DNA of 64,000 nt from positions 5,385 to 69,384 of the forward strand of contig CAYQTO010000004.1 in NCBI GenBank assembly GCA_964420455.1, read 5' to 3'. The notes under the pieces were generated by a model. The model did no database searches. It had not been told where the DNA came from and saw nothing but the letters and a program-made list of their open reading frames with translations. This document shows, piece by piece, positions 5,680-63,539 of the stretch. This DNA comes from an uncultured Candidatus Sumerlaeota bacterium. Its GTDB lineage: Bacteria; Sumerlaeota; Sumerlaeia; SLMS01. Position numbers and translations under genes: made by a program. Position 1 is the stretch's first letter. Each line of letters opens with the position of its first letter.

Positions 5680-8600
5680 GCCTTCACGGAGGCTGCCTGA
5701 ATCTCCGCAAGGTAGTTGCGGATTTCCGACTCCGGTTCCGGCCGCCTCATCAGGAACCCCTGGACGAAGTCGCAGCCGTACTCCCTTACGCGGGCGAGTT
5801 GCTCCTCGTTCTCGATCCCCTCGGCGATGGTCGAAAGGCCGAGGGCGCTCGAGAGGCTGGCGACCGCGGGGAGGATCAGCGCCGACTTGTCCTCCGCCGA
5901 CAAGGCATCCACAAATGCCCGGTCGATCTTCACCGTGTCGAGCGGCAGCCGGTGCAGATAGTTCAGGGAGGAGTAGCCGGTCCCAAAGTCGTCTATACAG
6001 ATGGAGACACCCTGGTCGCGCAGTTGCCCGAGGATGGCGATGGAGACCTCCGGATGGGCCATGAGGACGGTTTCGGTGATCTCGAGCTTGAGTGCGCCGG
6101 GATTGCACCCGGTGCGCTCGATGATCGTGCGGAGGTCCTCCGCGAGCCCCGTCTGGTTGAGCTGGCGTCCGGAGATATTTACGGCCATGAACCGGCCGTG
6201 AATCAGGTCTGGAAACTCCTGTTCCCATCGGCGCAGGGCTGCGCAGGCTTTCTCGAGAACGAGGAGCCCCACCGGCAGGATGACGCCTGTTTCCTCGGCC
6301 AGGGCGATGAAGTCCGCGGGGGAGATGCGTCCCCGCTCGGGGTGGTTCCATCGGACGAGAGCCTCGAAGCCGGCCAGCTCCAGCGTGGCCGTGTGGTAGA
6401 GCGGCTGGAAGTGGACGTCGAACTCCTGGCGTTCGAGCGCCCGGTGGAGGTCCGACTCGAGATCGAGCAACTCCTGGACATCGTCGCGCATGGAGCGGTC
6501 GAAGACGATGTGGCGGGCCCGGCCACCGTCCTTCGCCCGATACATGGCCGTGTCCGCGTCCCGAAGGATTTCTTCAGGCCGCTCGTAGCCGGCGCTGCTG
6601 AAGGCGATCCCGATGCTTGCGCTCGTATAGATCTCCTTCCCTTCGACGAGGAAGGGGCGGGCAAGCTCCTTGTGGAGCCGTTCGGCGATCATGCGGGCCT
6701 CCCCCGGGAGCCGGAGGTCCTCCACCAGGATCGCGAACTCGTCGCCACCGAGGCGTGCAAACAGGTCGCTCGGCCGGAGGATCCGTTGGAGCCGTTCGGC
6801 GATCTCCACCAGCAGGCGGTCGCCCACGAGGTGACCGAGGCTGTCGTTCACGACCTTGAACCGATCAAGGTCGAGGAACAGCACCGCGAAGAGGTAGCCG
6901 GGAAGTCGGGCGGAGCGGTTGAGGGCGTGCTCGAGGTGCTCGAGAAAGAGCGAGCGGTTGGCAAGGTTCGTCAGGCTGTCGTGCATCGCCTCGTGGTAGA
7001 GGCGTTCCTCGGCGAGGCGCCTCTCGGTCACGTCACGGAGGGATCCGGCGATGCGCACCGGCTGGCCCGTGGGCGAGAAGACCGCCACCCCCCGGCAGAC
7101 CATCCAACGGTACTGGCCGTCGCCGCACCGGATGCGGTGCTCGCTCTCGAAGTGAGGGGTCTCCTTCGCCAGATGCTCCTGGAGCTTGTGGTCCACCTCG
7201 GGACGATCCTCCGGGTGGATGCGGTCGAGCCAGACTTCCGGCGGGGACCAGGCGTCCTCGTCGGTGAGGCCGATCATCTCCTGCCAACGGGGCGAGAAGT
7301 ACATGGAGTTGGTCTCGAGGTTCCAGTCCCAAAGACCATCGTTGGCGCCCCGTGCGGCGAGGGCATAGCGCTCCTCGCTGACACGAAGGCGGCGGTCCGC
7401 CCGCTTGCGGTCCGTCACGTCGTTGGCAATCAGCTGGAGTGCCGGTGCGCCCTCGTACAGGACCGGGATCGCAACAGCCTCGAGGTCGAGGGCCTGGCCA
7501 TCGCTCCGCACCAGTTGAAAATCCTCGAACTCGGGCCGGAGGACCGGGCTGGAGTTCGCCGCCCGCGCAAGGAACTGCTGCCATCGGTTGAGCGCCCCTT
7601 CCGATGGCCACCACTGCACCCGCGACAGGTCGAGTTCCTCGGGGCCGCCCACGCCAAAGAGGCGGTGGCCCGCTCCGTTCAGATAGACAAGGCGGCCGGC
7701 CTTCAGCACGGCGATGGCGAGGGGGGCCGCCTCCACGAGTTGGCGGTACCTGCGCTCGCTGATTTCCAAAGCCTCGCGGGCCGCCTCCAGCTCCGTCAGG
7801 TCCACATTCAGGCAGTAGAACTCGGGATCTCCCGAGGCGCCGGTCATCTTCAGGAAGTTGCTGAGGACGGTGACGCGGCGGCCGCTCTTGCCGACGATTT
7901 CCAGCCGCTCGCTCTGGATCGGCAGGTCGCGGTCCGCCCAGTCGCGAAGCGCTGAACGAAACACCTCGCGGTGCGTCCCCGGCAGGAGGAGCTCCTCAAA
8001 GGGGCGCCGCGAGGCCTCCTCCGCTGTATATCCATACAGCTCATGGCTGGCCTTGTTCCAGAAGGTCACGCGCCCCTCGCGATCCATTCCCTGGATGGCG
8101 ATGTTGGGCATCTGCTCGAAGAGCGTGCGGAAGCGGTTTTCGCTTTCCCGGAGGGCGGCGTTCGAGCGGAGCCGTTCGATTTCCGCGCCTGCCCTGTCGG
8201 CCAGCACCTCGAGGTACGGCAGGTAGTCCCTCGGCCGGGGGATTTCCTCGTCGTGCACAATGACCAGCAACCCATGCTTTTGGCCCTGGGAGTTCCAGAG
8301 TGGCATGCCCAGGTAGGCCTCCGCACCGAGATCCCTGAGCATCGCGTCGTGGGGGTAGAGCTTGCGGACGCCCCGCGGGTGGACACAAACGCCCCCCGTC
8401 AACACCGCCTGACAGGGGGTCCCTTCCAGATCGAACGAGAACGGCGGGAGCAACTCGTCGTTCGCGGCAAACGCGAGGACATTTACGCGGGTTCCCCCGA
8501 CGATCTCGCCCACCAGCCCGAACCGGGTTCCCACCGCGCGGGTTACCGCCACCACGAGGTTCTCGAAGAACTCCTTCCCGGTCGCCGCGGACGTGCTTTC

Positions 8601-9879: not shown

Positions 9880-10622
9880 GGTTGCCGATCATCGGATGGG
9901 GGTGCCCCGTATGGCCGTAGGCATCGCGGAGGGCCACATCGGTGAGGGTCTCGGCGGCGGGGCCGAATCCCCTGGGGGTGCGCGACAGAATGATCGCGTG
10001 GGTGGCGTGGTGCCGGGCGACGGACCAGTCGTGGGTGACCATGATGACGGTGCCTTGGCGTTCACGTTGGAACTGGTCGAGGATGCGATAAAGTTCCCCC
10101 TCGCCGGGACGATCCATCCCGGTGGCGGGTTCATCGAGGAGGAGCAGGTCCGGCCGGCGAACGAGCCCCCGGGCGATATAGACACGTTGGAGCTGGCCAC
10201 CGGACAGCTCCGCAACCGGGCGCCCTGCGAGCATCGGGGCTCCCACGGCCTCGAGCGCCTCCTGCGCCCGACGACGGTCCTCCTTCCCCAGCCGCCACGG
10301 CCAGCGTCGGTGCAGCCCGCTTGCCACCAGCTCGATCGCCAGCGCGGGAAAACGCCGGTCCAGCAGCTTCACCTGCGGGACGTAGCTGATACGGTGGGGG
10401 TCGCGTGCTTCCACCGGTGCGCCAAAGAGCCGGATCGTTCCCTGCCGTGGCGCGAGCAGCCCCCCCAGGGCCCGCACCAGCGTCGTCTTCCCACCGCCAT
10501 TTGGGCCCACCCCCCGCCAGCAGCGACTGCCGCCCGAGGCGAAAGGAAACATCGCTCACCGCCACCACCGAGCCGTAGGCCACCTCGAGCCCATCCACCT
10601 CCACCGCCATCTCCGCGGTCAC
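9872..10622 (-). pseudogene. znuC: metal ABC transporter ATP-binding protein, reading frame broken in a C6 (G6 on the coding strand) homopolymer just before the Walker A motif
   Basis: The N-terminus MTAEMAVEVDGLEVAYGSVVAVSDVSFRLGRQSLLAG is in one frame (ORF 10131..10622). VGPNGGGKTTLVRALGG...LSGGQLQRV...LLLLDEP is in another (ORF 9872..10552). Removing one C from the run at 10510..10515 restores ...SLLAGVGPNGGGKTT. Confidence 0.75.
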
Positions 10623-11557
10623 GGGGCAAGCGCCTCCGCCAGGGTCCTCGCGTTCAGCACCATCATCGATCGATATCCGGCGAGAGTCCCTTCCTGGCCA
10701 AGGGGATCCAGCGTATGCACATCCAGGCCGGCGGATTCCGCGATGGCCTCCGCGGCGGTCGGCGCCAACTGGGGCTCGATAAACAACGCCCGGATTCCAT
10801 CTGACTCGATGCGATCGAGGATGTCCCGCATCTGCCCGGGTGTCGGTGTACGACCAGGCGCCACCTCGATTGCCCCCGCATACTCGAGCCCATAGCGCGC
10901 CAGCATGTAGTTCATCGACGCGTGGAACAGGATGACCGGCTGGCCGCGGACAGGTTCCAGGATTTCCCCCAACTCCGCGTTGAGAGCCTCCATCGAGGTG
11001 ACGACATCTTGTGCGTTCCCTGTATAGACAGCGGCGTTTGCGGAATCCACCTGCCCGAGCGCCTGCGCCACCGCTGGGGCGAGTGCGGCCATCACCAACG
11101 GATCCGTCCAGAAATGCGGATCCATGTGGCCATGGTGATGGTGGTCGTGGTCATGGTGATGATGGTCATGGGCGGTGCAACTGCCGGGAAATGCCTGCTG
11201 GAGTTCGGCGGGTACGAGCGGGCCCAGGGCGGTGACTTTGCCGTCGGCAAGTCCCCCCGTCCAGCCGTCGAAGGCGGTGTCCACATGGAACACGTGGTCC
11301 GCCTCCCGGACCGCCCGGGCCACCGACGGAGTCGGTTCCCACGAGTGGGGGGAGGACCCGGCGGGGAGGAGCACCCGGACGTCCGCCGCCTCCCCGGCGA
11401 CAGCGCTGACCAGCGCCCCCACCGGCGGTATGGTCGCGATCAATTTCAGGCTCTCGGGCGGCGGGGGAGGAGTCGATCCGCTCTCGTCAGTCTGGGAGGA
11501 GCAGGCAGAAAATAGAAGGAGGGGGAGCAGCAGAAGAAGAGACAGGGCAGGGCGCAT
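10619..11557 (-). CDS. znuA: metal ABC transporter substrate-binding lipoprotein with His-rich loop (ZnuA-like)
   Basis: Trimmed to MRPALSLLLLLPLLLFSACSS (lipobox-like). It has the His-rich loop HDHHHHDHDHHHHGH typical of ZnuA and the TroA/ZnuA-fold pattern. It overlaps znuC by 4 bp. Confidence 0.85.
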   Translation of the reverse strand: MRPALSLLLLLPLLLFSACSSQTDESGSTPPPPPESLKLIATIPPVGALVSAVAGEAADVRVLLPAGSSPHSWEPTPSVARAVREADHVFHVDTAFDGWTGGLADGKVTALGPLVPAELQQAFPGSCTAHDHHHHDHDHHHHGHMDPHFWTDPLVMAALAPAVAQALGQVDSANAAVYTGNAQDVVTSMEALNAELGEILEPVRGQPVILFHASMNYMLARYGLEYAGAIEVAPGRTPTPGQMRDILDRIESDGIRALFIEPQLAPTAAEAIAESAGLDVHTLDPLGQEGTLAGYRSMMVLNARTLAEALAP

Positions 11558-11640
11558 GCGCGAAAGTCCATCCGGGGCAAATTGGAAGGACCACGATGAA
11601 GGTTTCCGGGTGTGACGGCAAGGGGAATGAGAATTTCTTC

Positions 11641-12858
11641 TCATCCCCCATCAGCGGTCTGGCTTGCGAAATACTCCTGATATTGCGGAAGGGACTTCTG
11701 AATCGCGCGGGCCAGTGCGCCACGGATGGATCCGATCGATTCCTTCTCCGAACGGTTCTGATCGTCGGGGAAGACCCGGTTGGTGAAGAAGACCATGTAG
11801 GTACCGCTGAGCCGGTCGAACCAGACGAGGGTGCCGGTGTAGCCGGAGTGGCCAAAGACGGCGGTCTCGGGCGTCTTGTTGAGCGGTGTCAGGTAGGGCT
11901 CCACCTCGTAGACGTCGAAGCCGAGGCCACGGTCCTCGCCGATGGAATCGGGAATCTGGTCCTGCGTGGCGGCGGCGAGCACATCGGGGTCGATGATCTG
12001 ACGGCCATGCCACTTCCCATCCTGGAGGATCATCTCGCACCAGTTGGCGATGTCGGGTGCCGAGGAGAACAGGCCTGCGTTGCCGGGACAGTGGTCCTCG
12101 AACCCGTGGTAGTTGGCGAGGGGGTCGTGGACCTCGCCGGCGAGCAGGCTGCCGTCGCCTTTCTCCAGCGTCGGCACCACGCGGTCCATCGCCTGGGAGG
12201 GAACCGTATAGAAGGTCGACGTCATCCCCAGAGGCGTATAGACACGATTGCGCAGCAGGTCCTCGAGGCGGATGCCCGACGCGTTCTCGACCACCCGGGC
12301 CAGTGTCTGGAAGTTGAGGCAGCTGTAGGTATAGCCTTCCTTGGGGGTGTAGGAGGGCTCGAGGGCCGCGTAGGTGCGGATGAGGGCGTCGGCCGGTGCC
12401 TCGTCCTCGGCGCGGGTCTCCTCGACCCGATCGCGGCTCTCGTAGGCCTTGAGCCCGGAGGTGTGTGTCATGAGGTCGTGAATGGTGACCGATTCCTTGC
12501 CGTTGCTGCCGAAGCGGGGGATATACGTATCGACCTCGTCGTCGGTGGAAAGCAGCCCATCGCCAAGGAGCAGAAACGCGGCGGTGGCGGTACCGGCGAC
12601 CTTGCTGACCGAGGCCAGGTCGAAGACCGCATCCGTCGTCATGGGGCGGCTTTCGGGATCGTAGGTAAACCGGCCGTAGGCGCGCTCGAAGCGGAAGCGG
12701 CCCGGCTGGCCGACGACAAGGACCGCGCCCGGGTAGACTTCCTCCTCCAGTCCCCGTTCCACGATCTCGTCCAGGGCGTCGAGATCGATTGGTGAACTGG
12801 CGGAAGCTTCAAGGGGCATGGCAAGAAGGGCGAGGAGGAGGGGAACAAAGACGCGCAT
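11641..12858 (-). CDS. secreted serine hydrolase of the beta-lactamase (class C / AmpH / EstB-like) family
   Basis: Trimmed to the signal peptide MRVFVPLLLALLAMPLEASA. SxxK motif in FDLASVSKVAGTA; YxN-like region present. Confidence 0.8.
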   Translation of the reverse strand: MRVFVPLLLALLAMPLEASASSPIDLDALDEIVERGLEEEVYPGAVLVVGQPGRFRFERAYGRFTYDPESRPMTTDAVFDLASVSKVAGTATAAFLLLGDGLLSTDDEVDTYIPRFGSNGKESVTIHDLMTHTSGLKAYESRDRVEETRAEDEAPADALIRTYAALEPSYTPKEGYTYSCLNFQTLARVVENASGIRLEDLLRNRVYTPLGMTSTFYTVPSQAMDRVVPTLEKGDGSLLAGEVHDPLANYHGFEDHCPGNAGLFSSAPDIANWCEMILQDGKWHGRQIIDPDVLAAATQDQIPDSIGEDRGLGFDVYEVEPYLTPLNKTPETAVFGHSGYTGTLVWFDRLSGTYMVFFTNRVFPDDQNRSEKESIGSIRGALARAIQKSLPQYQEYFASQTADGG

Positions 12859-12985
12859 GGATACCGTCCGAATGTGATGAACCAGCCATGGACCATCGAA
12901 CGGTCCGGTCTGCAACGTCCTTTTCCATGCTTGCGTGGAATCGGTCAAAAGGGAACAAGGAGGGCATTCTCCTCGGCGAGCTTCC

Positions 12986-14794
12986 ATGGTTTCCCCAGTC
13001 ACTCGCGCCGTCACCCTTGCCATCGCGCCACTTCTGGCCGTAGTTGCCGGCATGGCTCAGGCCCAGACACCGGTCGACTTTGCCCGCACCCAGCCGGTCT
13101 TCGAGGACACGCCCGCGCGGATCGTCGACGAGTCGCGATTCGCCAAGGGCGCGCCCCCGGCGCCGGGCATCCCCCTCCGTCCCCCGGATCTCGGGTGGGT
13201 CGACGCCACCCTCGGCTCCATGACCCTCGAACAGAAGGTCGGCCAAATGTTCATGGCCAGTCAGTCCGTCGACCGACTGACCCACGTGAACAATTACCAC
13301 ATTGGCGGGTTCATCTTCATCGGCAACGGCCAGGATGCGGCCGACATCGTATCTGTCGTGAATGCGCTGCAGGCCGAGGCCGACATCCCGCTTTGGTTTT
13401 CCCTCGACGCGGAGGCGGGCATCGGGGCGCGCGTGGGAAACGCCACCATTTTTCCCATGGCCATGGCCTTTGGCGCGGTGGAGGACCGCTCGCTCATCGA
13501 GGATCTCGGCCGCATCACCGCCCGCGAGTCCCAGGCCCTCGGCGTCCAGACCGTCCTCGGCCCGGTCGTCGACGTAAACTCCGAGCCCATTAACCCGATC
13601 ATCTCCACCCGGTCCTACGGCGATGTGCCTGCCCGCATTGCCGTCTCCGCGGGTCGATTCCTCCAAGGTGCCGCCGCCGAGGGGGCCCTCTGTACCCTCA
13701 AGCACTACCCCGGACACGGCGCCACCAAGGGCGACAGTCACAATGCGCTCCCCGGCGTCGACATCCCCCGCGCCGCCATCGAGCAGATTCACATCGGCCC
13801 CTATCGCCACCTTATCGCCGATCCCGGGGTGGACCTCGTCATGACCGCCCACGTCTGGTACAGCGACGTCTACCCGGACGCCCCCTTTCCCGCCACTCTG
13901 TCGCCCATCTTCAACGACGAGATTCTCCGCGGCGACCTCGGCTTCGAGGGCGTTCTCATCTCCGACGCTTTCGGCATGGCGGGTCTGGCGATTGCCGTTC
14001 CCGACGAGACGGAACGCGCCCTCCAGGCCATCGAGTCCGGTGTTGATGTCATCCTGGACACGGGCGACATCGGGACAATGTACAATGGTGTGCTTGCCGC
14101 GGTCCAGGCGGGCCGCCTCACTGTCGACCGTATAGACGAGTCCGCCCGCCGCGTGCTGATTGCCAAGAGCCGCGCGGGCCTCCCCGAGCGGGCCACAGTT
14201 GACCCCGTCGCCTGGCAGACAGTCCTCAACCATCCGGAACACCGCGCCGCTGTGCGCCGCGTCGCCGAGGCCGCCTTCACCGAAGCACGCAACAACATCG
14301 GCGCGCCCGTGATTCAGCCCGGCGACGACGTGCTCCTGCTCACGCTCAGCGCCCAGACACTCATCTTCTATCGCTTCTCTCCCCAGCCCCTCCGGGACGC
14401 CCTCGCGAGCCGCGTTGCCAGCCTCGACATGCGCCACGTCAGCCTTTCCGTCAGCACCGCCGAACGCACCGAGACCATTCTCGCCGCCGCCGCCGCCGAC
14501 AAGGTCATCATCGCCGGCTACGACTGGACGCGAATCTCCTCCTCCAGCCAGGTCGAACTTATCAATGCGCTCAGCACCGCCGACACTCCGGTCACGTACC
14601 TCAGTTTCGGCGCCCCATACCACTACCTGCAGATACCGAACGTCGACGCGTTCTTCTGCGGATACGCCACGGTCCCGCAAATGCAGGAGGTCGCGGCGGA
14701 GGTGTTGGTTGGCGAGCGCGCCGCGGTCGGCCGTCTTCCCGTCATCGTCGACGGCCTCCCGGTGACCGATTCGACGCACCTCCGGATTTACTGA
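12986..14794 (+). CDS. glycoside hydrolase family 3 protein (NagZ / beta-hexosaminidase-like N-domain plus C-terminal domain)
   Basis: Signal-like N-terminus. Shows KVGQMFMA and KHYPGHGATKGDSH (the GH3 KH(F/Y)PGHG motif). Confidence 0.85.
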   Translation: MVSPVTRAVTLAIAPLLAVVAGMAQAQTPVDFARTQPVFEDTPARIVDESRFAKGAPPAPGIPLRPPDLGWVDATLGSMTLEQKVGQMFMASQSVDRLTHVNNYHIGGFIFIGNGQDAADIVSVVNALQAEADIPLWFSLDAEAGIGARVGNATIFPMAMAFGAVEDRSLIEDLGRITARESQALGVQTVLGPVVDVNSEPINPIISTRSYGDVPARIAVSAGRFLQGAAAEGALCTLKHYPGHGATKGDSHNALPGVDIPRAAIEQIHIGPYRHLIADPGVDLVMTAHVWYSDVYPDAPFPATLSPIFNDEILRGDLGFEGVLISDAFGMAGLAIAVPDETERALQAIESGVDVILDTGDIGTMYNGVLAAVQAGRLTVDRIDESARRVLIAKSRAGLPERATVDPVAWQTVLNHPEHRAAVRRVAEAAFTEARNNIGAPVIQPGDDVLLLTLSAQTLIFYRFSPQPLRDALASRVASLDMRHVSLSVSTAERTETILAAAAADKVIIAGYDWTRISSSSQVELINALSTADTPVTYLSFGAPYHYLQIPNVDAFFCGYATVPQMQEVAAEVLVGERAAVGRLPVIVDGLPVTDSTHLRIY

Positions 14795-16263
14795 TCGAGA
14801 AGGGCTCTGATCTCCCGCGCGTAGAGCTCGTAGGCCTCCCGCGTCAGGTGGAGGCCGTCCCGTGTATACATCCCGGCAAAGAGCCCGTCCCCGTCGACCA
14901 GGAGCGGGTGGAGGTCGATCAGCGCGAGGTTCTCGTCGAGGGCCATCTCGCGGAGGCGGTCGTTCCACGAATTCACCGAATCGGTCAGGTGGGCGAAGCG
15001 GCCACCCACCGGCGGGCAGGTCGCGATCACCAGCCGCGTGTCCGGCGCGCGTTCCTTGATGCGGGCAACGATTCCGCGGAACTCCGCCACCATGCGTTCC
15101 TCTGTCGGGTTTCCATCATCCCCGCGTGCGCGGTCGCCAAGGTCATTGGTCCCCATCATGATCACAGCCATCTCGGGCTGCATGTCGAAGAGCGACAGCT
15201 CGAGCCGCCGGCTGAGGCCCTGCGGCTTGATCCCCAGGGTATCGGATGAAATCCCGCGGTTGAACACCCTCCAGTCAGGGAGCAACTCCGCGGGGAACGC
15301 CTCGGTCGTCGAGGACCCCAGGAGGGCGATGAGGGGCCGATCGTCCTCCCCAAGGGGGAGCCGGGCATTCTCCTCGGCAAAAAGCGAAAGGCGTTGGAAG
15401 TAGTGGCGGGGCCAGCGGTCGTCTTCCGGCCAGGTCTCGGCCATCGCCGCCATGTGAAAGTTCAAGTGCGAGGGCAGGTGTGCGGTCCAGTAGTCCCAGT
15501 TGTGGGTGCCGGGCAATTCGCGCCAGATGTGGGGGACGCCAAGTTCCGTGAGGCGCTCGTGGAGTTGGCGGGAATCGAAGATGGCGCCGGTCGCCGTGTC
15601 GTCCTCGCCGCAATCGAACATCAGCCGCACATCGGCATCGCGGAAGGTTTCCGCGCGGTCCCACACCGAGTAGTCCTTCCACCGCTCGGGGTAATCCTCC
15701 ATCGGGCCGAGCCGCGCGGCGACGTCCTCCATGTCGGGATGGTTCGTCAGCTTGAGGATCCCCGAGAGGGAACTCGCGGAGCCAAACCGTTCCGGATACC
15801 TGGACGCGAGCATTAGCGCGCCATGCCCCCCCATGCTGAGGCCCATGATTGCCCGTGCCGACCGGTCGCGGATCGTCGGGTAGGTCGCGTCTATATGGTC
15901 GACAAGCTCGACCGCAACGTAGCTCTCGTACTGGGATTCGGGCATCTCCGGCGCGTCGAGGTACCAGCTGTCTTCATCGCCGTCCGGAAACACGAGGATC
16001 GCACGGTAACGGCTCGCGACCTCGCCTGCATTCCCCTTTTCCGGCCAGTCGATGTGGCTGCCCCACTTGCCGTGCAACACATAAACAACCGGGAATTGCT
16101 CGCCGGGCGTGCGGTCTTCCGGCAGGTACACCGAGTAGCTCTTTTGAATCTCCAATACCCGGCTCTCATGGGTGACTTCGATCATTTCGGACATCCCCAA
16201 AGAAATCGTCAGGCCCAACACAAAGGAGACCAGGACAGACTGGAGGGCGATTCGCATCCTCAT
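14788..16263 (-). CDS. bifunctional-looking esterase: esterase-D/'putative esterase' alpha/beta-hydrolase domain plus C-terminal SGNH/GDSL hydrolase domain
   Basis: N-terminal half: VYVLHGKWGSHIDW...GLSMGGHGAL (nucleophile elbow GxSxG). C-terminal half: IALLGSSTTEAF...MMGTNDL...DGLHLT (SGNH blocks). Confidence 0.7.
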   Translation of the reverse strand: MRMRIALQSVLVSFVLGLTISLGMSEMIEVTHESRVLEIQKSYSVYLPEDRTPGEQFPVVYVLHGKWGSHIDWPEKGNAGEVASRYRAILVFPDGDEDSWYLDAPEMPESQYESYVAVELVDHIDATYPTIRDRSARAIMGLSMGGHGALMLASRYPERFGSASSLSGILKLTNHPDMEDVAARLGPMEDYPERWKDYSVWDRAETFRDADVRLMFDCGEDDTATGAIFDSRQLHERLTELGVPHIWRELPGTHNWDYWTAHLPSHLNFHMAAMAETWPEDDRWPRHYFQRLSLFAEENARLPLGEDDRPLIALLGSSTTEAFPAELLPDWRVFNRGISSDTLGIKPQGLSRRLELSLFDMQPEMAVIMMGTNDLGDRARGDDGNPTEERMVAEFRGIVARIKERAPDTRLVIATCPPVGGRFAHLTDSVNSWNDRLREMALDENLALIDLHPLLVDGDGLFAGMYTRDGLHLTREAYELYAREIRALLDQ

Positions 16264-17595: not shown

Positions 17596-20500
17596 ATGTC
17601 GCTTTCCAGCTTCGCCGTCAACGCGCCTGTCAAGGTCTCGATGATCTTCCTCGGGGTCCTGCTGCTTGGGTGGATTTCCCTCTCGCGGCTGCCGACCAAC
17701 CTTTTTCCGGACATTCGGGCGCCCAAAGTCACCGTCACCGTCACGACAAATGGCCTCAGCCCCGGCGAGGTCGAGCGGCGCATCAACGAGGTCATCGAGC
17801 GGTCCCTTTACTCGATTCGCGGTGTCCTCGACGTCCAGTCGATCGCCCGCGCGGACACAGCGGTTATCGTCGTCAACTTCACTTGGGACTCGAACCTCGA
17901 CTATGCGTTCCTCGAGGTAAAGAAGGCGGCGTCGGATCTCGAGCGGGATCGTTCCGACGAGATCGAATCGATCTCGGTCCTGCGCTATGATCCGAACGCC
18001 ATGCCGGTGGTGACGGCGGCCCTCCGGGCACCCGAGAGCATCGATCTGGAGGACGTCTACAAGACCGCGGAGCGCACGCTCAAGCCGCGCTTCGAGCGAC
18101 TCGAGGGAGTCGCCAATGTCGTGGTAACCGGCGGCCTCGAGCGCGAGATCCGCATCGATCTCGACGAACCGCTGCTCCTCGCCTACGATCTCAACGTCAG
18201 CACCGTCGTCTCGGCGATCCAGAACGACAATTCGGACGCGACCGGTGGCTGGGTCGAGGAAGGGCCGCGGCGCTACCTTTTGAAAGCCGCCGGGGAGTTC
18301 CGCAACATCGACGACGTCCGACGGGTGGTGGTCACAAGGCGAGGGAATTCGCCAATCCTTCTGGGCGACGTTGCCAACGTTTACTTCGCGCCGCGGGAGC
18401 CGAAGTCGCTCGTCTATCTAGATGGGGAGGCGGCCGTCGCCCTCGCCTTCTACCGCAGCCCGGAAAGCAACACCGTCGCCGTCGCCGAAGCCATTCGGGC
18501 GGAAATCGAGAACTCTGCCCGTGTCCTTCCGGATACCTGGCAGATGACGGTTGCCAACGACCAATCGACCTTCATCAGCGCCGCCATCCGCGAGGTCCGC
18601 AACAATGCCATCATCGGCGGTGTCCTCGCCATCGTGGTGATCCTCCTCTTCCTTCGCGACATCATCAGCACGCTGATTGTGGCGATCGCGATCCCGATCT
18701 CCATCGTGGCCACCTTCAACCTGATGTATTTCCAAGGCTTGTCGCTCAACCTGATGACGTTGGGGGGGCTCGCGCTGGGGACGGGTATGCTCGTCGACAA
18801 CGCGATTGTGGTACTCGAGAATATTTATCGCCTTTTGCAGACAGGAAGGGACCGGCGCGAGGCGGCCCGTCTCGGCGTGCGTGAGGTCGGCGGGGCCCTC
18901 GTTGCCTCGACGCTGACCACCGTCGCCGTCTTCCTGCCCATCGTCTTCGTGCGCGGCGTGGCAGGACTGCTTTTCCAGGAGCAGGCCCTCACCGTCGCCT
19001 ACTCGCTCCTCGGCTCGCTCGTCGTCGCCCTGCTGCTGATTCCCATGTTGTGTGCGTTCTTCCTTAACCGGCGGGGAACAATGATCTCGCCGGGCGAATC
19101 CTTCGACGTTCCACGAAACCCTTACACGATGATCCTTCGGCTCGCCCTGCGGCTACGTCTCTTGGTCGTGTTGGCTGCGGCCGGTTCCCTATATCTCGTG
19201 TATGTCTTTGTGCGGGATATTCCCCAGGAGTTCCTCCCGGCGACGGAATCGGACCAGGTCGCTGTCCGGGTTGTTCTTCCAAACGGCACGCCTATCGAGG
19301 CCACCGATGATCTGGTCCAATCGATCAACGGGCAACTCCGGCGTTTTGAACCCGCCCTCGAGTCGGTCCTCTCCCGCGTGGGTGAGCCCGAGGGGGTTGT
19401 TAATCCCAACACCCAGGATCCCGACGGCCCGAACACCGCCGACATCTTCGTCCGGCTCTTCAGTGGCGACGAGCCGACGACCGCAATCATCGAGCAGGGG
19501 CTGGTCGGCTTCTCCTCCTCCGACCTCATTGCAGGGTTGAAGCCGATCCTGGACCGCGTGCCGGACGCGAAGGTGGAGTTTCGATCGAACGAGGGGACGC
19601 TGATGGACCTGGTGGGTTCCGCCCGTGCCCCGCTCATTTTGGAGATCAGCGGCCCCGAGCTGACGACCCTCAAGGGGCTGGCGGAGGAGGCCCAACGCCG
19701 CCTGTCCTCCCTTCCCGAGCTTCGAAACGTCCGGACGAACATCCTCGAGGGGGCGCCCGAGGTCATGATTCGGCTGGACAAGGCCCAGTTGTCCCGCCTC
19801 GGGCTCGACGTGAGCGGCGTCGGCGGTATTCTCCGCCAGCGCATCGAAGGCGAGGTCGCGTCCCAGATCACCCAGGAGGCGGGCGACGTGGACTTGCGCG
19901 TTCAGGTTGATTACGGACGTGAGTCGCTCGATACCCTTCGAAATATTCTCATCAAGTCGAGCACCGGCGCGCTGATTCGGCTCGAGGCGGTGGCGGAGTT
20001 CGAGATCGTGCGCGCCCCGCGCGAGATCGTCCGCCGTGGCCAGGAACGCGTCGCTTTCGTCCTGGCGGACCTCGCCCCGGGCCTGCGTCTCTCCGAGGGC
20101 ATCGCCGCAGCCCAGGCCTCCGTCGACGACCTCCCCCTCCCACCCCGCTATCTCCTTCGCTTCACCGGAGAGGAGGAGCAGCGCCGTGATGCCTTTGGCG
20201 ACCTCGCCTTTGCCCTTCTCCTCAGCATCGCCCTCGTCTATATGGTGATGGCCTCGATCTTCGAGAGCTTCATCCAGCCGTTGCTCATCATGCTGACGAT
20301 TCCCCTCGCGGGGCTCGGTGTCGTTGCCGCGCTGCTTTCCACCGGCCAGACGTTTAATGTCATGTCGATCATCGGTATTGTGATGTTGGGCGGGATCGTG
20401 GTGAACAACGCAATCGTGCTCCTGGATTGCGTGAACCAGGTGCGCAGTTCCGCTCGCGAGGCGGGGGTCGGGATCGACCCCACCGACAGCCTTGTGCTGG

Positions 20501-41267: not shown

Positions 41268-43901
<2,634 letters not shown>

Positions 43902-47947: not shown

Positions 47948-48955
47948 ATGAAACCGGACGCGCGCACACCGGCGGAGGTCGCCGCCGACTTGATCGCCAG
48001 CGACCCACCCTCCGGCCACGCCCTGGTCGTGGACGAGCCCCACGACATTGTGGCGGGCGCCCTCGGGCGACACGGCATTCAGGTCCTCCGGTGGGAGACG
48101 AGACGTGTCGAGGATCGCGAGGCTCACCCGTGGCAGCAGGCAATGGCGGTCAGCACGGTGTTTCTCCGGCTGCCCCCCTCCCGGGAGTTTCTGGATTTCC
48201 AGCTCCACGCCATCGCGGGCCGGCTACTTCCCGGTGGACGTCTTTACGTGTTTGGTTCCAACGCGGAAGGCGCGCGGTCCGCCGGGGGCTCGCTCGAGGG
48301 CTTGTTCGGCGAGGCCGAAACGATCGAGTCGCGGCGCCATTGCCGTGTGTGGGAGGCAACGCGGCCTGCCCACATTACCGGCCTGCGCCCGGCCCTCGAG
48401 GACTGGGCAACGTCCTTCGCCTTCACCCTCGCTGGCGTCGACTATACGGCGACGACGCTGCCCGGCTGCTTCGCCGCGGGACGCCTCGATGGGGGCACCC
48501 GGCTTCTTCTCGAGGCGCTCCTCCATCGCCCTGCCGTCGGCAACCTCCTGGATTTTGGGTGTGGTGTCGGGGTGATCGGTCTGGTGCTCGGGAGAACGTG
48601 GCCCGGGTGCCGGATCGTCGGGATCGACAATTTTTCCCCGGCTGTCGAGGCGGCCCGCCAGAATGTTCCCGCCATGGAGGTCCACCTGGCGGATGGCTGG
48701 AGGGGTGCGCCCGCGGGGCCCTTCGACCTTGTTGTGAGCAACCCGCCGATCCATTCGGGAAAGGCGGAAGACCATCGGGTGCTGGGCGAGTTGCTGCGCG
48801 GCGCGCCCGGGCGGCTCAGGCCCGGGGGGCGGCTCGTGATCGTTGTCCAGTCGAGGATTCGCCTCGCCGACCGGCTTCGCGACGTCTATACGGACACGGA
48901 GTTGCTCGCCCGCGACGGGACCTACGAGGTATGGTCCGCCATTGCCCCGGCCTAG
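47948..48955 (+). CDS. class I SAM-dependent methyltransferase, RsmC/RsmD-like (rRNA m2G type)
   Basis: Shows LLDFGCGVGVIGLVL (motif I) and LVVSNPPIHSG (the NPPxH motif IV typical of RsmC-like enzymes). An alternative GTG start lies at 47939. Confidence 0.65.
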   Translation: MKPDARTPAEVAADLIASDPPSGHALVVDEPHDIVAGALGRHGIQVLRWETRRVEDREAHPWQQAMAVSTVFLRLPPSREFLDFQLHAIAGRLLPGGRLYVFGSNAEGARSAGGSLEGLFGEAETIESRRHCRVWEATRPAHITGLRPALEDWATSFAFTLAGVDYTATTLPGCFAAGRLDGGTRLLLEALLHRPAVGNLLDFGCGVGVIGLVLGRTWPGCRIVGIDNFSPAVEAARQNVPAMEVHLADGWRGAPAGPFDLVVSNPPIHSGKAEDHRVLGELLRGAPGRLRPGGRLVIVVQSRIRLADRLRDVYTDTELLARDGTYEVWSAIAPA

Positions 48956-50736
48956 GCGGACTCCGCCAGCGCCGGGATCTCGATGCCCCGCCGCCGGCCC
49001 GCGTGGAGCCCCACCATATAGACGACCGCCTCGACGATCATCCAAACCTCGAGCGCCAGCACCGCCAGCCCGATAAAGAACAAGAGCCAGTTGCGCGAGT
49101 CCGGATTCGCAAAGGTCTCGAGCAACAGCACCAGACCCCAACCGGTCATCACCAGCATGAACACCATGGGAATCGCGGTGATGACGACCGGCTTGCCCTT
49201 GCGGTAGAGCCAGACCGTCGCAACAAGGAGCGCGAGGCCCGCCAGCAGCTGATTGGTGGTGCCGAACAGCGGCCAGAGTATCATCGCTCCCATGCCGCCG
49301 GTCTTCAGCCCCTCAAGGATCGAGTCCGCCAGAAACACATCGTTGAAGGCCAGTACGAAGCCGCTGAGCACCGCGATGGCGGTGGCGACAAAGCGATTTG
49401 AAAGGACGGGCACGCGGATCGTGTTGCCCAACTCGCTGATGACGTAGCGCTGGAGGCGGGTGGTACTGTCCAGGGTCGTTGCGGCAAAGCTGGCAACGAA
49501 GACTCCCATAATCGCGGTGGCAAAGGCCAGGGGAACACCAATCCCCTGCATCAGGTTGGCCGCGCCGGGGATCACCGCTCGCATTGCATTGCCGAGGCCC
49601 TGGGCCTCGCCCCAGTTAAGGTACTTTGCCTGCCAGGCCGCCGACCCCGTCAGCATCCCTTCCGGTGTCGACATGCCAAGGCCAAGCCCCGCGCAGCACG
49701 CCACGATCACGAGCACCGCCAACATGCCCTCGAGAAGCATGGCGCCGTAACCCACGTACTGCGCGTCCGCCTCGCTCCGCAGTTGCTTGGAACTCGTGCC
49801 GCTCGAAACAAGACAATGAAACCCGCTGCACGCGCCACAGGCAACCGTGATAAACAGGAAGGGCAGAACGGGAAAAGGGGCGCCGATGTCCGAATCGAAA
49901 TTGGTCGCGGGCGCCACCAGCGCGGGTTGCGACACCAGCACCCCCATGAAGAGGAGCCCCATTGCGAACATCAACTGGTACGAATTGATGTAATCGCGGG
50001 GCTGGAGCAGCCACTGAACCGGGAGCGTGCTGGCAACAAAGCAATACGCCAGCAGGAGCACGGTCCAGAAGGCGACGGGGCTCAACCACCCCAGGTTCAC
50101 CGAGAACTGGAACGCCTCGAACGTGCTCGAAAGCCAGATCGTCGCGTACATCAGGACGACGGACACGATGGTCCCCGCGACGAGGTTGCCCCCGCGCAGC
50201 ACCCAGATGCCGAGTCCAACAGCGATCGGGATCTGGAGCCAGACCGGCAGGACGGAACTGGGGAACTGGGCAAAGACCACCGCGATCACGAGTCCGAAAA
50301 TCGCGATCACGATCCAAAGTGCGAACATGATGATCAGCAGAAACAGGATCCGCACGCGGCGGTTGATGATATCGCCGCAGTAATCGCCGATCGTCCGGCC
50401 CTGGTTGCGCAGGCTCATGACGAGGGCGGCGAAATCGTGCACTGCCCCGACGAGGACGCTCCCGACGAGCACCCAGATCAGCGCCGGGAGCCATCCCCAG
50501 ATAACGGCGATCGCCGGGCCGACGATCGGCCCCGTGCCGGCGATGCTGGTGAAGTGGTGGCCAAAGACGATCGAGCGGTCGCTCGGGACGTAATCACAGC
50601 CATCCTCGCGCACCACCGCTGGCGTCTGCCGCGACGGATCGAGCTGGAAGATCTTTCGCCCAAGCCAACGACCATATGTGTGGTAGGCCACCAGGTACAG
50701 CACGGCGGCGCCAACGACGATCAGGACGGTTTCCAT
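48952..50736 (-). CDS. cstA: carbon starvation protein A (peptide/pyruvate transporter family)
   Basis: 594-aa polytopic membrane protein. Shows FGHHFTSIAGTGPIVGPAIAVIWGWLPA and ACGACSGFHCLVSSGTSSKQL. Confidence 0.9.
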   Translation of the reverse strand: METVLIVVGAAVLYLVAYHTYGRWLGRKIFQLDPSRQTPAVVREDGCDYVPSDRSIVFGHHFTSIAGTGPIVGPAIAVIWGWLPALIWVLVGSVLVGAVHDFAALVMSLRNQGRTIGDYCGDIINRRVRILFLLIIMFALWIVIAIFGLVIAVVFAQFPSSVLPVWLQIPIAVGLGIWVLRGGNLVAGTIVSVVLMYATIWLSSTFEAFQFSVNLGWLSPVAFWTVLLLAYCFVASTLPVQWLLQPRDYINSYQLMFAMGLLFMGVLVSQPALVAPATNFDSDIGAPFPVLPFLFITVACGACSGFHCLVSSGTSSKQLRSEADAQYVGYGAMLLEGMLAVLVIVACCAGLGLGMSTPEGMLTGSAAWQAKYLNWGEAQGLGNAMRAVIPGAANLMQGIGVPLAFATAIMGVFVASFAATTLDSTTRLQRYVISELGNTIRVPVLSNRFVATAIAVLSGFVLAFNDVFLADSILEGLKTGGMGAMILWPLFGTTNQLLAGLALLVATVWLYRKGKPVVITAIPMVFMLVMTGWGLVLLLETFANPDSRNWLLFFIGLAVLALEVWMIVEAVVYMVGLHAGRRRGIEIPALAESA

Positions 50737-54619: not shown

Positions 54620-54627
54620 GTATAGAC
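54620..54627 (+). repeat. the only intergenic copy of the over-represented octamer GTATAGAC (20 exact copies in the window; see findings)
   Basis: Read directly. It sits 2 nt upstream of the terminator hairpin that follows the DUF4912 gene. Confidence 0.9.
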
Positions 54628-55032: not shown

Positions 55033-57582
55033 ATGGACGAAATTCGCGAGAACATCCGCCCGATCGCCATCGAAGAGGAGATGCGCAGCGCCTTCCTCGA
55101 CTACTCGATGTCGGTGATCGTCAGCCGGGCACTGCCCGACGTGCGCGACGGCCTCAAGCCCGTCCACCGGCGGATCCTCTACGCGATGTACACGGGCGGG
55201 TTCCGATCCAACCGCCCTCCGTCCAAGTCCGGCCGCATCGTTGGGGACGTCCTCGGAAAGTACCACCCCCACGGCGACACCGCCGTCTACGACGCCATGG
55301 TCCGCATGGCCCAGAGCTGGTCCATGCGCGAGATGCTCATCGAGGGCCAGGGCAACTACGGCTCCATGGACGGCGATCCCCCCGCGGCGATGCGTTACAC
55401 CGAGGCGCGCCTGCGCTCCATCGGCGAGGCGATGCTGACCGACATCGATAAGGACACGGTCAACTTCGTCCCCAACTACGACGGCAAGGACCTCGAGCCG
55501 GTCGTCCTCCCCAGCGCCTTTCCCAACCTCCTCGTCAATGGGTCCGAGGGCATCGCCGTCGGCATGGCCACCAAGATTCCGCCCCACAACCTGGGCGAGT
55601 GTATAGACGCCTTGGTCCTCCTCATCGACAAGCCGAAGGCCACCCTCGAGGAGGTCATGGCACTGATGCCCGGGCCGGACTTTCCCACCGGCGGCTATAT
55701 CCTGGGCCGCGAGGGCATCCGCTCCGCCTATTCCACCGGCCGAGGCCGTGTCGTCATGCGCGCCCGATGCATGACCGAGCAGCTCAAGAATGGCAAGGAA
55801 GCGGTCATCGTCAGCGAGCTGCCCTATCAGACCAACAAGGCGACCCTTATCGCGAATATCGCCGGCCTCGTCCGCGAGAAGAAGCTCCTCGGCATCACCG
55901 ACATCCGCGACGAGTCGGACCGCGACGGCATGCGCATCGTTATCGAGCTGCGCCGCGGCGAGGAAGCCGAGGTCGTCATCAACAACCTTTACAAGAAGAC
56001 GGGGATGCAGGCGACCTTTGGCGTGATCCTCCTCGCCATCGTCAACAACCAGCCGCGCTATTTGTCGCTCCTGCGCATCCTGCACCTGTATATCCAGCAC
56101 CGGCGCGAGGTGCTCCTGCGGGCGACGCGCTTCGACCTCAACAAGGCCCAGGAACGCCTCCACATCGTCGAGGGCCTCCTTACCGCCCTCGCCAACATCG
56201 ACGAGGTGGTACGCATCATCCGCGAGAGCGCCGATACGGACGGGGCCCGCACCGCCCTGATGGAAAACTTCGTCCTCTCGCGCCGCCAGGCCGACGCCAT
56301 CCTCGAGATGCGCCTGCGCACCCTCACCGCCCTCGAAGTCCACAAGCTCGAGGACGAACGCACCGAACTCAAGGCCCTCATCGAGCGCCTCGAGGCCATC
56401 CTCGCCTCCGAGAAAAGACAGTACGAGGTCATCCGCGAAGACCTCCTCGACGTGAAAAAGCGCTACGCCAATCGGCGCCTCTCCGAGATCATTAACGATC
56501 CCGGCGAGATGACCGTCGAGGACCTCATCGCCGAGGAACGCATGGTCATTACCATCAGCCATGCGGGCTACATCAAGCGCACCGACATGAACCTTTACCG
56601 CAAACAGAAGCGTGGCGGGAAGGGGACCATCGGCGCCGAGACGCGCGACGAGGACTGGGTCGAGCACCTTTTCGTGGGCACGACCCACGACTACATGATG
56701 TTCTTCACCAATCTGGGGAAGGCCTACTGGCTGAAGGTCTGGGAGCTTCCCCAGGCGGGACGTGCATCGAAGGGGCGCCCGATCGTGAACCTCCTCGAGG
56801 CCCTCGAGAAGGACGAGAGAATCCAGGCGGTTGTCGCCGTCTCCGAGTTCCGCGACGACCACTTCCTCGTCTTCTGCACCCGCAAGGGCCAGGTGCAGAA
56901 GAACGCCCTCTCCCTTTACAGCAATCCGCTGAAGCGCGGCATCAAGGCCTTCAACATCGGGGAGGACGACGAGCTCATCACCGTGAAGCTCGCCGCCGAC
57001 GACCAGGACATCCTCATCGCCACGCGCAAGGGCATGGCCGTCCGCATGAAGACGGCGGACATCCGCGCCGCCGGACGCTTTACCCAGGGCGTGCGCGGCA
57101 TCACCCTTACCGAAGGCGACCGCGTCATCGGCATGGAGTCGCTCCGGCCCGACGGCACGATCCTCACCGTGTCCGAAAAGGGCATGGGCAAGCGGTCGGA
57201 AATCGAGGACTATCGCCGGATCAGCCGCGGCGGGAAGGGCGTGATCAACATGCGCCTCACGGATCGCACCGGCGAGATTGTTGGCATCAACGAGGTCCTC
57301 GATACGGACGAAATGATCATCATCACCGCCAAGGGCCAGACGATCCGCTTCCGCGTGTCGGACCTGCGGGTGATCGGTCGCGCGACCCAGGGGGTGAAGC
57401 TGTTCTCCCTCGACGAGGGCGACCGCATCGTTGCCGTCTCCCGCGTCGCCGAGGACGAGGAAAAGGACGACGAGTCCCAGTCCTCGGCCACCGGCGAGTC
57501 GCCCGCCGAAGGCGCCCCGGAGGCCGAATCTGAAGACACCGGCATCCAGGGCGAAGAGACGGATACCCCCCCCGAGGCTTAA
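55033..57582 (+). CDS. gyrA: DNA gyrase subunit A
   Basis: 849 aa. Shows [32 protein letters not shown], the active-site region [10 protein letters not shown], and C-terminal beta-pinwheel repeats with an acidic tail. Confidence 0.95.
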
Positions 57583-62171: not shown

Positions 62172-63539
62172 TCAGCGCGTGATGGCGAGGCGAAATCCGA
62201 GGTTGCTGCCCCGGCTGAAGGGGAGTCCCTCGAGCCGTTGGGCAGAGCGGCAGTTTCCCGCCTCGGAGAACCATCCACCGCCCCGCAGGGTTCGCGTGTC
62301 CCCCATTGCCGGTCCCGTGGGATTGGTCTTCGGCTGTGCCGTGTACGGACCCCCGCGGTCGTGGCACCACTCCCAAACGTTGCCCGCCATGTCATAAGCC
62401 CCCACCGGCGATGGCGAATCCACCGTGGCCTGGCCGGTGAGGGTGAGCGTCGTTGACCCGTCGAAGAAGCCCACCGGCGAAGTGAAGGGCGGCGCCGCGA
62501 GCCCCACCGGATTGTTGTTCAGGAGACACGCCCGCGTCGTCGGCAGGTCGTCTGCCACCACGCCATAGATCCAGTGGCGGCTTCCGTCCCAGGCCGCGGC
62601 GCGTTCCCACTCCGATTCCGTGGGCAGGCGATACCCGGCGGCGTACTGAACGCCCGGCGTCCCGGGTTCCGCGTCCACGAGTTCCCACGCGCCGAGATCA
62701 TAGGCCCGGGGGCGCCCCTCGCGTTCCGACAGAAAGTTGCAGAACGCCACCGCGCCATACCAGGTCACGTTATGGACCGGGTGATCGCCGAGGTCCTCGA
62801 GGCCGGCGGCGGCTGGCCGTGTCACCGGCAGGAAACCGGCCGGCGTCCACTCCACATCCGACGTTCCGTCCGCGATGAAGGCGAGCGGCTGGGGATCGCC
62901 GGCCGTTGGCGCCAGCACCAGCGTCCCCGTTGTGTTATACACGTCCCCCTCCGCCGAGGCCACAATACGCCCCCGCGCCAGCGCCCAATTCATCACCTCC
63001 GCGAACTGTGCGTTGGTTACTTCGAAACGCCCAATTTCGTAAGCCGAGAGGGTGACCTCGTGGCGGGGATCCTCGAAGTCCGTTCCGAAAGTGGCATCGT
63101 CGCCCGTGTCTGTTCGACCCATGGTGAAGGTCGACGCCGGGACGCTGACGAATTCGGCAAAGGCCCCCGGCGGGGGAGGAGGCGCCTCGGTTGCGGTGAG
63201 CACAACGGTCGCCTCGGGCCAGACAACTTCCCCGAGGTCCGCACGCGCGTCCCAGGTGATCGTCCTGCCTTCGCCGGGAAGGATGCCGCCCCCAACATCG
63301 CCGGAAAGGAACGACCCATCGGGGTAATGGAGATTCTCGTCGGTGGGCCCATCGGCGACGCCCATCGAGAGATACACCGGATTGTCCGCGCCGGTCAGGT
63401 CGTAGGTCACGTCGACCAGCCCCGAGTCGTCCGGCCGCTGGGACGCGACCACATTCGAGACGAGCGGCTGCGTATAGACGTTTCGTACCAGGCCGAGGCA
63501 GGCCAGGGCAGCTAGCGCGATGATCCGGAGGCGCGTCAT
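62172..63539 (-). CDS. secreted FGE-sulfatase (SUMF1/formylglycine-generating enzyme-like) domain protein with N-terminal Ig-like domain
   Basis: Trimmed to MTRLRIIALAALACLGLV. Shows HEVTLSAYEIGRFEVTNAQF, HPVHNVTWYGAVAFCNFLS, GYRLPTESEWERAA, GNVWEWCHD, RGGGW and LGFRLA. Confidence 0.8.
   Translation of the reverse strand: MTRLRIIALAALACLGLVRNVYTQPLVSNVVASQRPDDSGLVDVTYDLTGADNPVYLSMGVADGPTDENLHYPDGSFLSGDVGGGILPGEGRTITWDARADLGEVVWPEATVVLTATEAPPPPPGAFAEFVSVPASTFTMGRTDTGDDATFGTDFEDPRHEVTLSAYEIGRFEVTNAQFAEVMNWALARGRIVASAEGDVYNTTGTLVLAPTAGDPQPLAFIADGTSDVEWTPAGFLPVTRPAAAGLEDLGDHPVHNVTWYGAVAFCNFLSEREGRPRAYDLGAWELVDAEPGTPGVQYAAGYRLPTESEWERAAAWDGSRHWIYGVVADDLPTTRACLLNNNPVGLAAPPFTSPVGFFDGSTTLTLTGQATVDSPSPVGAYDMAGNVWEWCHDRGGPYTAQPKTNPTGPAMGDTRTLRGGGWFSEAGNCRSAQRLEGLPFSRGSNLGFRLAITR

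Follow-up and report, generated by a model that had tools for sequence, protein, structure and literature searches.

A hyper-abundant, asymmetric DNA word with a TATAGAC core in one subclade of Candidatus Sumerlaeota

What makes one octamer so abundant inside ordinary genes, against their own codon usage, and what keeps it there? The question is raised by a 64 kb stretch (64,000 nucleotides of the 72.6 kb contig CAYQTO010000004.1; hereafter the window, with position 1 as its first letter) of one metagenome-assembled genome (MAG) of Candidatus Sumerlaeota (formerly BRC1), with a G+C content of 64.6%. A preliminary description of this DNA, made by eye, had reported 20 exact copies of the octamer GTATAGAC. 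It had put the expectation at about one copy for about two-thirds G+C and had placed about a third of all TATA tetranucleotides in this one context. Our pattern search recovered 20 exact copies, 13 on the + strand and 7 on the - strand, and every coordinate and strand given earlier is exact. Base composition predicts 0.75 copies and dinucleotide-preserving shuffles predict 0.19 (largest shuffle value 2), and GTATAGAC is the top-scoring 8-mer of the window. Twenty of the 61 TATA tetranucleotides (33%) lie inside it. The neighbouring bases are also as described: always C or T on the 5′ side (C 13, T 7, A/G 0), and G or A on the 3′ side in 18 of 20 (G 12, A 6, C 2). The present study shows a recognition word at the DNA level, about 9-10 bp long, that selection or drive maintains in a single subclade of Sumerlaeota; in the genes of this group it exceeds the expectation from chance or codon usage 10-27-fold.

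The octamer had been taken as the unit. Its enrichment stands, whereas its boundaries do not: the octamer extends, in a lineage-specific way, a 7-mer core, TATAGAC. This core occurs 26 times in the window, and all 26 copies match DTATAGACV (D, any base except C; V, any base except T), of which 0.45 would be expected. The base at -1 is G in 20 copies, A in 5, T in 1 and C in none, and T never stands at +1. Upstream of the core, the window copies favor C at -3 and C or T at -2, giving the sharpened form C-Y-G-TATAGAC-R. Single-base variants of the octamer at positions 2-8 remain at background level. Past ±3 nt the flanks carry about 0.1 bit, and therefore the word is not a piece of a longer repeat; a dispersed repeat of the repetitive extragenic palindrome (REP) or miniature inverted-repeat transposable element (MITE) type is rejected by these flanks and by the location of 19 of 20 copies in coding sequence. 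The word is asymmetric, i.e., it differs from its own reverse complement. Its palindromic cousin GTCTAGAC occurs 0 times in the window, which also rejects a dimer site GTMTAKAC of which the word would be one form, and GTATATAC occurs twice. The density in the window is 0.31/kb for the octamer (one per 3.2 kb) and 0.41/kb for the core.

The 19 coding copies, 9 sense and 10 antisense to their genes, fall into the frames GTC-TAT-ACR (10 copies), YGT-ATA-GAC (7) and TAT-AGA-C (2), in the proportions described earlier; three of the five stop-free frames are occupied. Could codon usage alone produce such a distribution? Genes in the window were called from G+C at the third position and checked against Pfam, and synonymous codons were shuffled inside each gene in 500 trials. 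The shuffles gave a mean of 1.6-1.7 copies and a maximum of 6, against 18 GTATAGAC copies observed in called coding sequences. This null is generous, because the rare codons contributed by the word itself stay in the pool. Codon bias is thus ruled out as the cause, and the codon-aware check does not refute the earlier claim. When every 7- and 8-mer of the window was scored against this codon-aware null, TATAGAC, GTATAGAC and words overlapping them were the only strong outliers (log10 P -12 to -13). As a separate observation, the next unrelated outlier of the whole window is CGGGATCG/CGATCCCG (24 copies vs 7.7 expected, log10 P -5.7).

The peptides behind these copies tell the same story. All 10 Val-Tyr-Thr sites in the window are spelled with GTATAGAC, as the preliminary description had noticed, and so are 7 of the 10 Arg/Cys-Ile-Asp sites. 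In contrast, none of the 8 Gly/Ser-Ile-Asp sites, which would place a purine at -2, is spelled this way. The pyrimidine at -2 is spelled CGT or TGT in one frame and ACG or ACA, never the preferred ACC, in the other. The same reading at -2 thus recurs in frames that are unrelated and lie on opposite strands, a pattern that nothing but a constraint on the DNA string itself explains. The recoded peptides (Val-Tyr-Thr, Arg/Cys-Ile-Asp and Tyr-Arg) carry the rare codons ATA, AGA, TAT, CGT, TGT and ACG/ACA. Furthermore, Val-Tyr-Thr is fivefold more frequent than amino-acid composition predicts (10 vs 2.0) and Cys-Ile-Asp occurs 3 times vs 0.38 expected, with the control tripeptides VYS, VYA, VFT, GID and SID at expectation. 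These data show that a force on the DNA string itself makes and keeps the word, that protein needs do not, and that amino-acid sequences have also been nudged toward word-compatible peptides.

Is the word a property of this one assembly? GyrA and aspartyl-tRNA synthetase (AspRS) place the window in Candidatus Sumerlaeota. The nearest sequences in public collections share 77-82% (GyrA) and 72-74% (AspRS) amino-acid identity with it, and no relative closer than about 82% (GyrA) or 74% (AspRS) was found in the collections searched. We fetched 173 loci (numbered with L). Only Sumerlaeota assemblies among them, a set drawn from differing projects, are enriched in TATAGAC: L002 (G+C 65%, 3 copies in 8.8 kb), L162/L163 (62%, 8 in 13.5 kb), L165 (48.5%, 15 in 22 kb), L166 (59%, 6 in 17 kb), L170 (63%, 4 in 7.8 kb) and L171/L172 (65%, 5 in 12.4 kb), the two pairs each entered as one. 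Pooled, these six positive relatives hold 41 TATAGAC vs 5.8 expected in 82 kb, at densities of 0.35-0.68/kb. With the database gene calls, L162, L165, L166, L170 and L171 each exceed all 1000 synonymous shuffles. GCA_964437365.1, GCA_020831705.1 and SLOM01 are examples of motif-positive MAGs.

The core is identical in the window and in L002, L162, L165, L166, L170 and L171, and the flanks vary as dialects. L165 has A, T or G at -1 in roughly equal shares and mostly A at +1 (D...A), and the window dialect is CYG...R. Across all 67 sites of the window and the positive relatives, C stands at -1 in none and T at +1 in none; the corresponding values in unrelated genomes are 14% and 19%. In 2.3 Mb of unrelated bacteria TATAGAC is under-represented (102 vs 239 expected), as it is in 144 kb of motif-negative Sumerlaeota (3 vs 9 expected), a set that includes L001 and L003, the nearest by GyrA, and L164 from the AspRS clade. 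The lineage of L168 likewise counts as negative. The enrichment within the positive clade is therefore more striking. Scanning metagenomes with ClpB brought up distant relatives only (≤72% identity), with the word at background frequency (13 copies in 1.02 Mb). From this pattern of enrichment and absence across genomes of 48-65% G+C, the trait is old, independent of base composition and patchy, and TATAGAC is shown to be a genomic signature word of one Candidatus Sumerlaeota subclade.

These relatives also dispose of the suggestion that the word was written in by deliberate recoding or as a synthetic watermark. At least six environmental assemblies, independent of one another, are enriched in it, which rules out a watermark and an assembly artefact alike. 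An artefact in the wider sense (assembly or sequencing error, dispersed repeat or mobile element, watermark) can practically be dismissed: copies in conserved proteins keep the reading frame, the flanks carry no information farther out than ±3 nt, and independent NCBI, ENA and Logan assemblies of differing samples agree.

Candidate words of other kinds were sought in the motif-free relatives. CTTCGCGC, with 11 copies in the 10 kb of L001 (1-10187), and CGCGATCA in L164 both vanished under the codon-aware null. The best codon-aware words there contain CCTGCG: in L001, CCTGCGAA occurs 5 times vs 0.26 expected, and in L003 (1-22430), GCCTGCG occurs 23 times vs 7.5 expected. This weak signal could be a different, lineage-specific word. 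Another side observation concerns the AspRS of the window (33416-35533), which has about 700 amino acids. In its anticodon-binding region (residues ~73-142) it contains an insertion of about 100 amino acids, with a weak match to PF18324 (bacterial isocitrate dehydrogenase C-terminal domain). One Sumerlaeota clade is marked by this long form; in other Sumerlaeia the protein has about 610 amino acids.

Comparison of orthologous positions shows how relatives spell individual sites. The GyrA Cys-Ile-Asp is TGT-ATA-GAC in the window and TGC-ATC-GAC in the motif-free L001 and L003. The Arg-Ile-Asp of the ClpB RIDMSEY segment is CGT-ATA-GAC in the window; 0 of 80 other ClpB loci carries TATAGAC there, and 62 of them encode Arg-Ile-Asp otherwise (e.g., CGC-ATC-GAC, CGT-ATT-GAT). 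The AspRS Arg-Ile-Asp is spelled with the word in the window and in L162/L163, and as CGC-ATC-GAC in L164 and L166. Thus, where residues are conserved across relatives, the window deviates by synonymous changes only, toward rare codons. L162 and L170, which have 4.1 kb in common at 80% nucleotide identity, hold one site in both and two that are unique to L170, one of which arose via Tyr-Arg recoding (TAC-CGA to TAT-AGA). Conservation in relatives, which the preliminary description had proposed as a check, is seen in part: six relatives are enriched and three orthologous sites are kept (AspRS in the window and L162, Wzz in L162 and L170, Wzy in L162 and L171), and L001, L003 and L164 are without the word. 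Its view that selection acts at the DNA level, against codon preference, holds on several counts, namely three frames, both orientations, saturation of compatible peptides, distorted tripeptide usage and orthologues with common codons.

The same site histories bear on a functionless by-product, in which context-dependent mutation, biased mismatch repair or a codon-pair or translational preference would generate the word. Repair systems do yield such biases in short words; Vsr in E. coli gives few-fold ones. Here, however, the excess is 11-27-fold, with a specificity of 9-10 nt. Reaching the word from a common-codon precursor requires C-to-T and C-to-A changes, two or three specific changes per site, counter to G+C and codon bias. 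These are opposite to the T-to-C changes of Vsr-type very-short-patch repair, and a simple repair by-product is therefore disfavored. Moreover, the core is identical in genomes of 48% to 65% G+C. Translational explanations are excluded by the recurrence of one string on either strand and in three frames. We regard a by-product as highly improbable.

Where do the copies lie? The Val-Tyr-Thr copies are antisense on the + strand at 11022..11029 (GTC-TAT-ACA) in a ZnuA-family gene (10619-11644, -), at 12236..12243 in a beta-lactamase-family gene (11641-13053, -), which is a real gene, at 23626..23633 and 25405..25412 in a peptidase C25 gene (22419-26756, -), and at 63472..63479 in an FGE-sulfatase-family gene (62172-63779, -). 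On the - strand they are found in an ADP-ribosylglycohydrolase-family gene (35885-37651, +) at 36188..36195 (antisense), 37220..37227 and 37313..37320 (the latter two Val-Tyr-Thr-Ser), and, antisense, at 40177..40184 in an ABC permease gene (39958-41136, +; GTC-TAT-ACA) and at 48884..48891 in a small-domain (rRNA-type) methyltransferase gene (47939-48955, +). The copies at 37220 and 37313, 93 nt apart, have 14 identical nucleotides in common (GGTCTATACGTCTG, Val-Tyr-Thr-Ser; stretches 37219-37232 and 37312-37325) and are the only ones with C at +1. This pair may be a small internal duplication, leaving 19 independent copies instead of 20.

In the Ile-Asp frame, TGT-ATA-GAC (Cys-Ile-Asp) occurs at 5991..5998 (-; sense) in a PAS/GGDEF/EAL gene (5676-8996, -) and, on the + strand, at 44804..44811 in an amidohydrolase gene (43864-45381, +) and at 55601..55608 in gyrA (55033-57582, +). 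CGT-ATA-GAC (Arg-Ile-Asp), always on the + strand, occurs at 14130..14137 in a glycoside hydrolase 3 gene (12935-14794, +), at 34071..34078 in the AspRS gene (33416-35533, +) and twice in clpB (41256-43901, +): at 43180..43187 in the universally conserved RIDMSEY segment and at 43828..43835, a poorly conserved position near the 3′ end. The Tyr-Arg copies are ATG-TAT-AGA-CAA (Met-Tyr-Arg-Gln) at 24527..24534 (-; sense) in the peptidase C25 gene, whose 1445-amino-acid peptidase C25/CARDB product holds three motif copies, and GCG-TAT-AGA-CGC (Ala-Tyr-Arg-Arg) at 38211..38218 (+) in a solute-binding protein gene (37732-39072, +). The sole intergenic copy (54620..54627, +) lies 18 nt past the stop of a DUF4912 gene (53163-54602), upstream of gyrA.

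The variant ATATAGAC occurs on the + strand at 10176..10183 in an ABC ATPase gene (9872-10552, -), with the core TATAGAC intact, at 46231..46238 in a class IV aminotransferase gene (45378-46310, -) and at 49016..49023 in cstA (48952-50736, -), and on the - strand at 15889..15896 in an esterase/GDSL gene (14788-16287, -) and at 20236..20243 in an AcrB-family gene (17557-20778, +). Earlier these had been listed correctly save for the last, given as 20235; the only TTATAGAC variant, at 45274..45281 (-) in the amidohydrolase gene (43864-45381, +), comes in addition. The gene content of the window is ordinary housekeeping and transport genes, and no DNA methyltransferase, restriction, competence or rec gene is encoded in it. 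A tandem HSP20 pair (30413-31396, - strand) stands downstream of a sigma-54 activator gene (28419-29990, + strand).

This gene content touches on a reading in which an orphan or restriction-linked methyltransferase would target the word, in the manner of the cyanobacterial octamer HIP1 (highly iterated palindrome 1), and its abundance would be upheld via methylation-dependent recombination, repair or transformation efficiency. HIP1 too is hyper-abundant within genes against codon usage and retained at orthologous positions; it is over-represented 15-300-fold and under selection (PMC5861425). The patchy loss in L001, L003 and L164 resembles the loss of HIP1 in cyanobacteria without cognate methyltransferases (PMC4390886). 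Several observations speak against such a reading, which we consider quite unlikely, although it is still a serious contender. The Sumerlaeota word is strictly asymmetric (GTCTAGAC 0 times, GTATATAC twice), quasi-periodicity is absent, and the window encodes no DNA methyltransferase. Besides, Vsr-type repair restores C and the word needs C-to-T and C-to-A changes, so that a very-short-patch mechanism cannot generate it.

The spacing of the copies is informative in its own right. The coefficient of variation (CV) of the gaps is 0.97, where 0.96-0.97 is the random expectation, and regular spacing was rejected on this value. The finding bears on the idea of an abundant nucleoid-associated or chromosome-organizing protein, whose occupancy of the chromosome would be what selects for the sites. 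Independence of orientation and frame and a sharply specific footprint of 9-10 bp would suit such a protein, and the TATA step is presumably deformable. The irregular spacing does not suit it, and there is no evident reason why such a protein should force the recoding of nearly every compatible peptide. The sites of known site-specific organizers (parS, matS, Noc and SlmA sites) number in the tens and are mostly palindromic, unlike the approximately 1000 asymmetric sites implied here. An organizing role thus appears improbable.

The two orientations raise a further possibility. The preliminary description had read an orientation bias into the 13:7 split; on its own this is not significant (P = 0.26), nor is the 16:10 split of the core (P = 0.33). 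With the coding and replication components separated, the GC skew at four-fold sites makes the + strand C-rich in both halves of the window, and since the skew keeps its sign, the window is probably a single replichore. No orientation flip occurs at about 31 kb, where the gene strand changes, and the sign of the four-fold-site skew is the same on either side. TATAGAC lies on the C-rich strand in 16:10 in the window and in 7:1 in L162; L170, a close relative of L162, adds two sites of opposite orientation. Pooling the window with L162 gives 23:11, and adding L170 gives 24:13 (P ~0.06-0.10). As an aside, the four-fold-site GC skew of L162 (1-13528) is extreme, with -0.59 in + genes and +0.23 in - genes; its replication-strand component is about -0.41 vs -0.07 in the window.

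Such a preference would be expected of a Chi-like signal, which a RecBCD- or AddAB-type helicase-nuclease would read from one side, passing from degradation to RecA loading, so that self DNA is protected and repaired. The word fits this in being an asymmetric 7-8-mer that occurs once per 2.5-3 kb in housekeeping genes (clpB, gyrA, aspS), and in its lean toward the C-rich strand of a single replichore (16:10), stronger in the strongly skewed L162 (7:1). However, the polarization is weak and falls short of significance (in the window 62%; pooled 24:13, P ~0.1), and the L170 sites are opposite. Known Chi words ride on common codons. In contrast, recoding here runs counter to the genome's own codon and G+C bias and distorts tripeptide usage, as is characteristic of uptake sequences and HIP1. 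A polarity of about 70-75%, as a Chi-like signal might have, is possible on these counts, and a Chi-like role seems unlikely to us, although it is a serious contender. The polarity known from KOPS (FtsK-orienting polar sequences) is excluded, the orientation split being 62-65%.

What, then, might read the word? Its presence in both orientations, random-like spacing at about one per 2.5-3 kb, dialect flanks and loss in some relatives suggest a sequence-specific DNA-handling protein, conserved in the subclade, as the reader. Our best guess, at a probability of roughly 0.4, is that the word is a "self" tag favoring the uptake and/or recombination of conspecific DNA, as do the DNA uptake sequences (DUS) of Neisseriaceae and the uptake signal sequences (USS) of Pasteurellaceae. 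Word-bearing fragments would be preferentially taken up or recombined and would replace alleles without the word, which would spread by molecular drive. We favor this reading because the word is orientation-neutral, confined to few frames, imprinted on the proteome, flanked by dialects and lost in some lineages. Uptake sequences leave the same imprint on reading frame and proteome (PMC2817400) and have the same lineage dialects (PMC3630211). A bolder proposition, which we hold as possible but doubtful, is that Sumerlaeota have the first self-recognition system of the uptake-sequence kind to be seen outside Proteobacteria, with a subclade receptor or processing enzyme reading DTATAGACV. On this view the reader would have driven the word to approximately 1000 copies per genome and kept the core across genomes of 48-65% G+C, and lineages that lost the reader would have lost the word.

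Several points weigh against a self tag. The density of 0.3-0.7/kb is below the ~1/kb of classical DUS/USS. About half of DUS/USS are inverted pairs forming terminators (bioRxiv 10.1101/2025.10.24.684340), whereas no inverted pairs were found among the window copies, 1 of 20 being intergenic. That the close relatives L001, L003 and L164 lack the word would be explained just as well by a mobile methyltransferase. A moderate lean toward the C-rich strand, possible at 23:11 and at the pooled 24:13, would suit a Chi-like signal better. Type IV pili, a prerequisite for uptake, are reported in all Sumerlaeota MAGs (PMC8092238), yet they are generic. The word analysis draws on 64 kb of the window genome and, for the motif-positive relatives, on about 82 kb, and the self tag is argued from the pattern of the sites.

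Whichever protein reads the word, signature words offer a view into how cells tell their own DNA from foreign DNA and manage recombination. The present case comes from a phylum without a cultured member, with a word strong enough to recode proteins. Since close relatives include carriers and non-carriers, the reader gene could be traced by phylogenetic profiling without cultivation. As a sequence flag of its lineage, the word may also aid binning, the spotting of recently acquired DNA and, if a member is cultured, the design of transformable constructs.

How does the word compare with known systems? To our knowledge, few signature words (DUS/USS, Chi, KOPS, HIP1) have been recognized, nearly all from cultivated Proteobacteria, Firmicutes and cyanobacteria. 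A full-text literature search with GTATAGAC and GTCTATAC gave only unrelated matches, for GTCTATAC, and no description of the word; nor was it found mentioned in a Sumerlaeota MAG study (PMC8092238). KOPS and the SpoIIIE recognition sequences (SRS) are likewise over-represented asymmetric octamers, read by FtsK and SpoIIIE. KOPS are strongly skewed toward the leading strand (PMC3384302), whereas here, in what is probably one replichore, the octamer splits 13:7 and the core 16:10. The Chi sites of RecBCD/AddAB are asymmetric 5-8-mers, about one per 3-5 kb in core genes, and a mild strand preference may be a further likeness. Chi is strongly polarized (bioRxiv 10.1101/2020.08.13.249359), in contrast to the weak and nonsignificant 62-65% here; besides, the Sumerlaeota word goes against codon usage and base composition and is AT-rich, not G-rich. 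Like HIP1 (GCGATCGC), it is an octamer that is hyper-abundant in genes whatever their codon preference, shows conservation at orthologous sites and is missing from some clade members. The function of HIP1 was long unexplained and has recently been linked to transformation and methylation. HIP1, however, is a perfect palindrome that overlaps methyltransferase sites and is quasi-periodic, unlike the asymmetric, randomly spaced word of Sumerlaeota.

The word cannot be assigned to any one of these families: it has several features of DUS/USS and lacks their terminator pairs as well as the palindrome of HIP1. With DUS/USS it has in common a short asymmetric form of about 9-12 nt, in which the core is strict and the flanks are softer, and, in the stretches analyzed, heavy over-representation in both orientations, mostly in genes, in few tolerated frames and with a tripeptide imprint. 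Dialects around a conserved core and site turnover with some orthologous retention are further likenesses. It differs in being 2-3 times sparser, with nearly no intergenic copies or terminator inverted pairs, and in being absent from several close relatives. DNA with a DUS or USS is preferred in uptake or transformation, through a dedicated receptor of the ComP or ComN type (ComP in Neisseria), and the present word is known from sequence alone. It also belongs to another phylum and is an unrelated, AT-rich sequence in G+C-rich genomes. What we rate as new is thus a hyper-abundant signature word in a new phylum, with an unusual AT-rich, asymmetric sequence.

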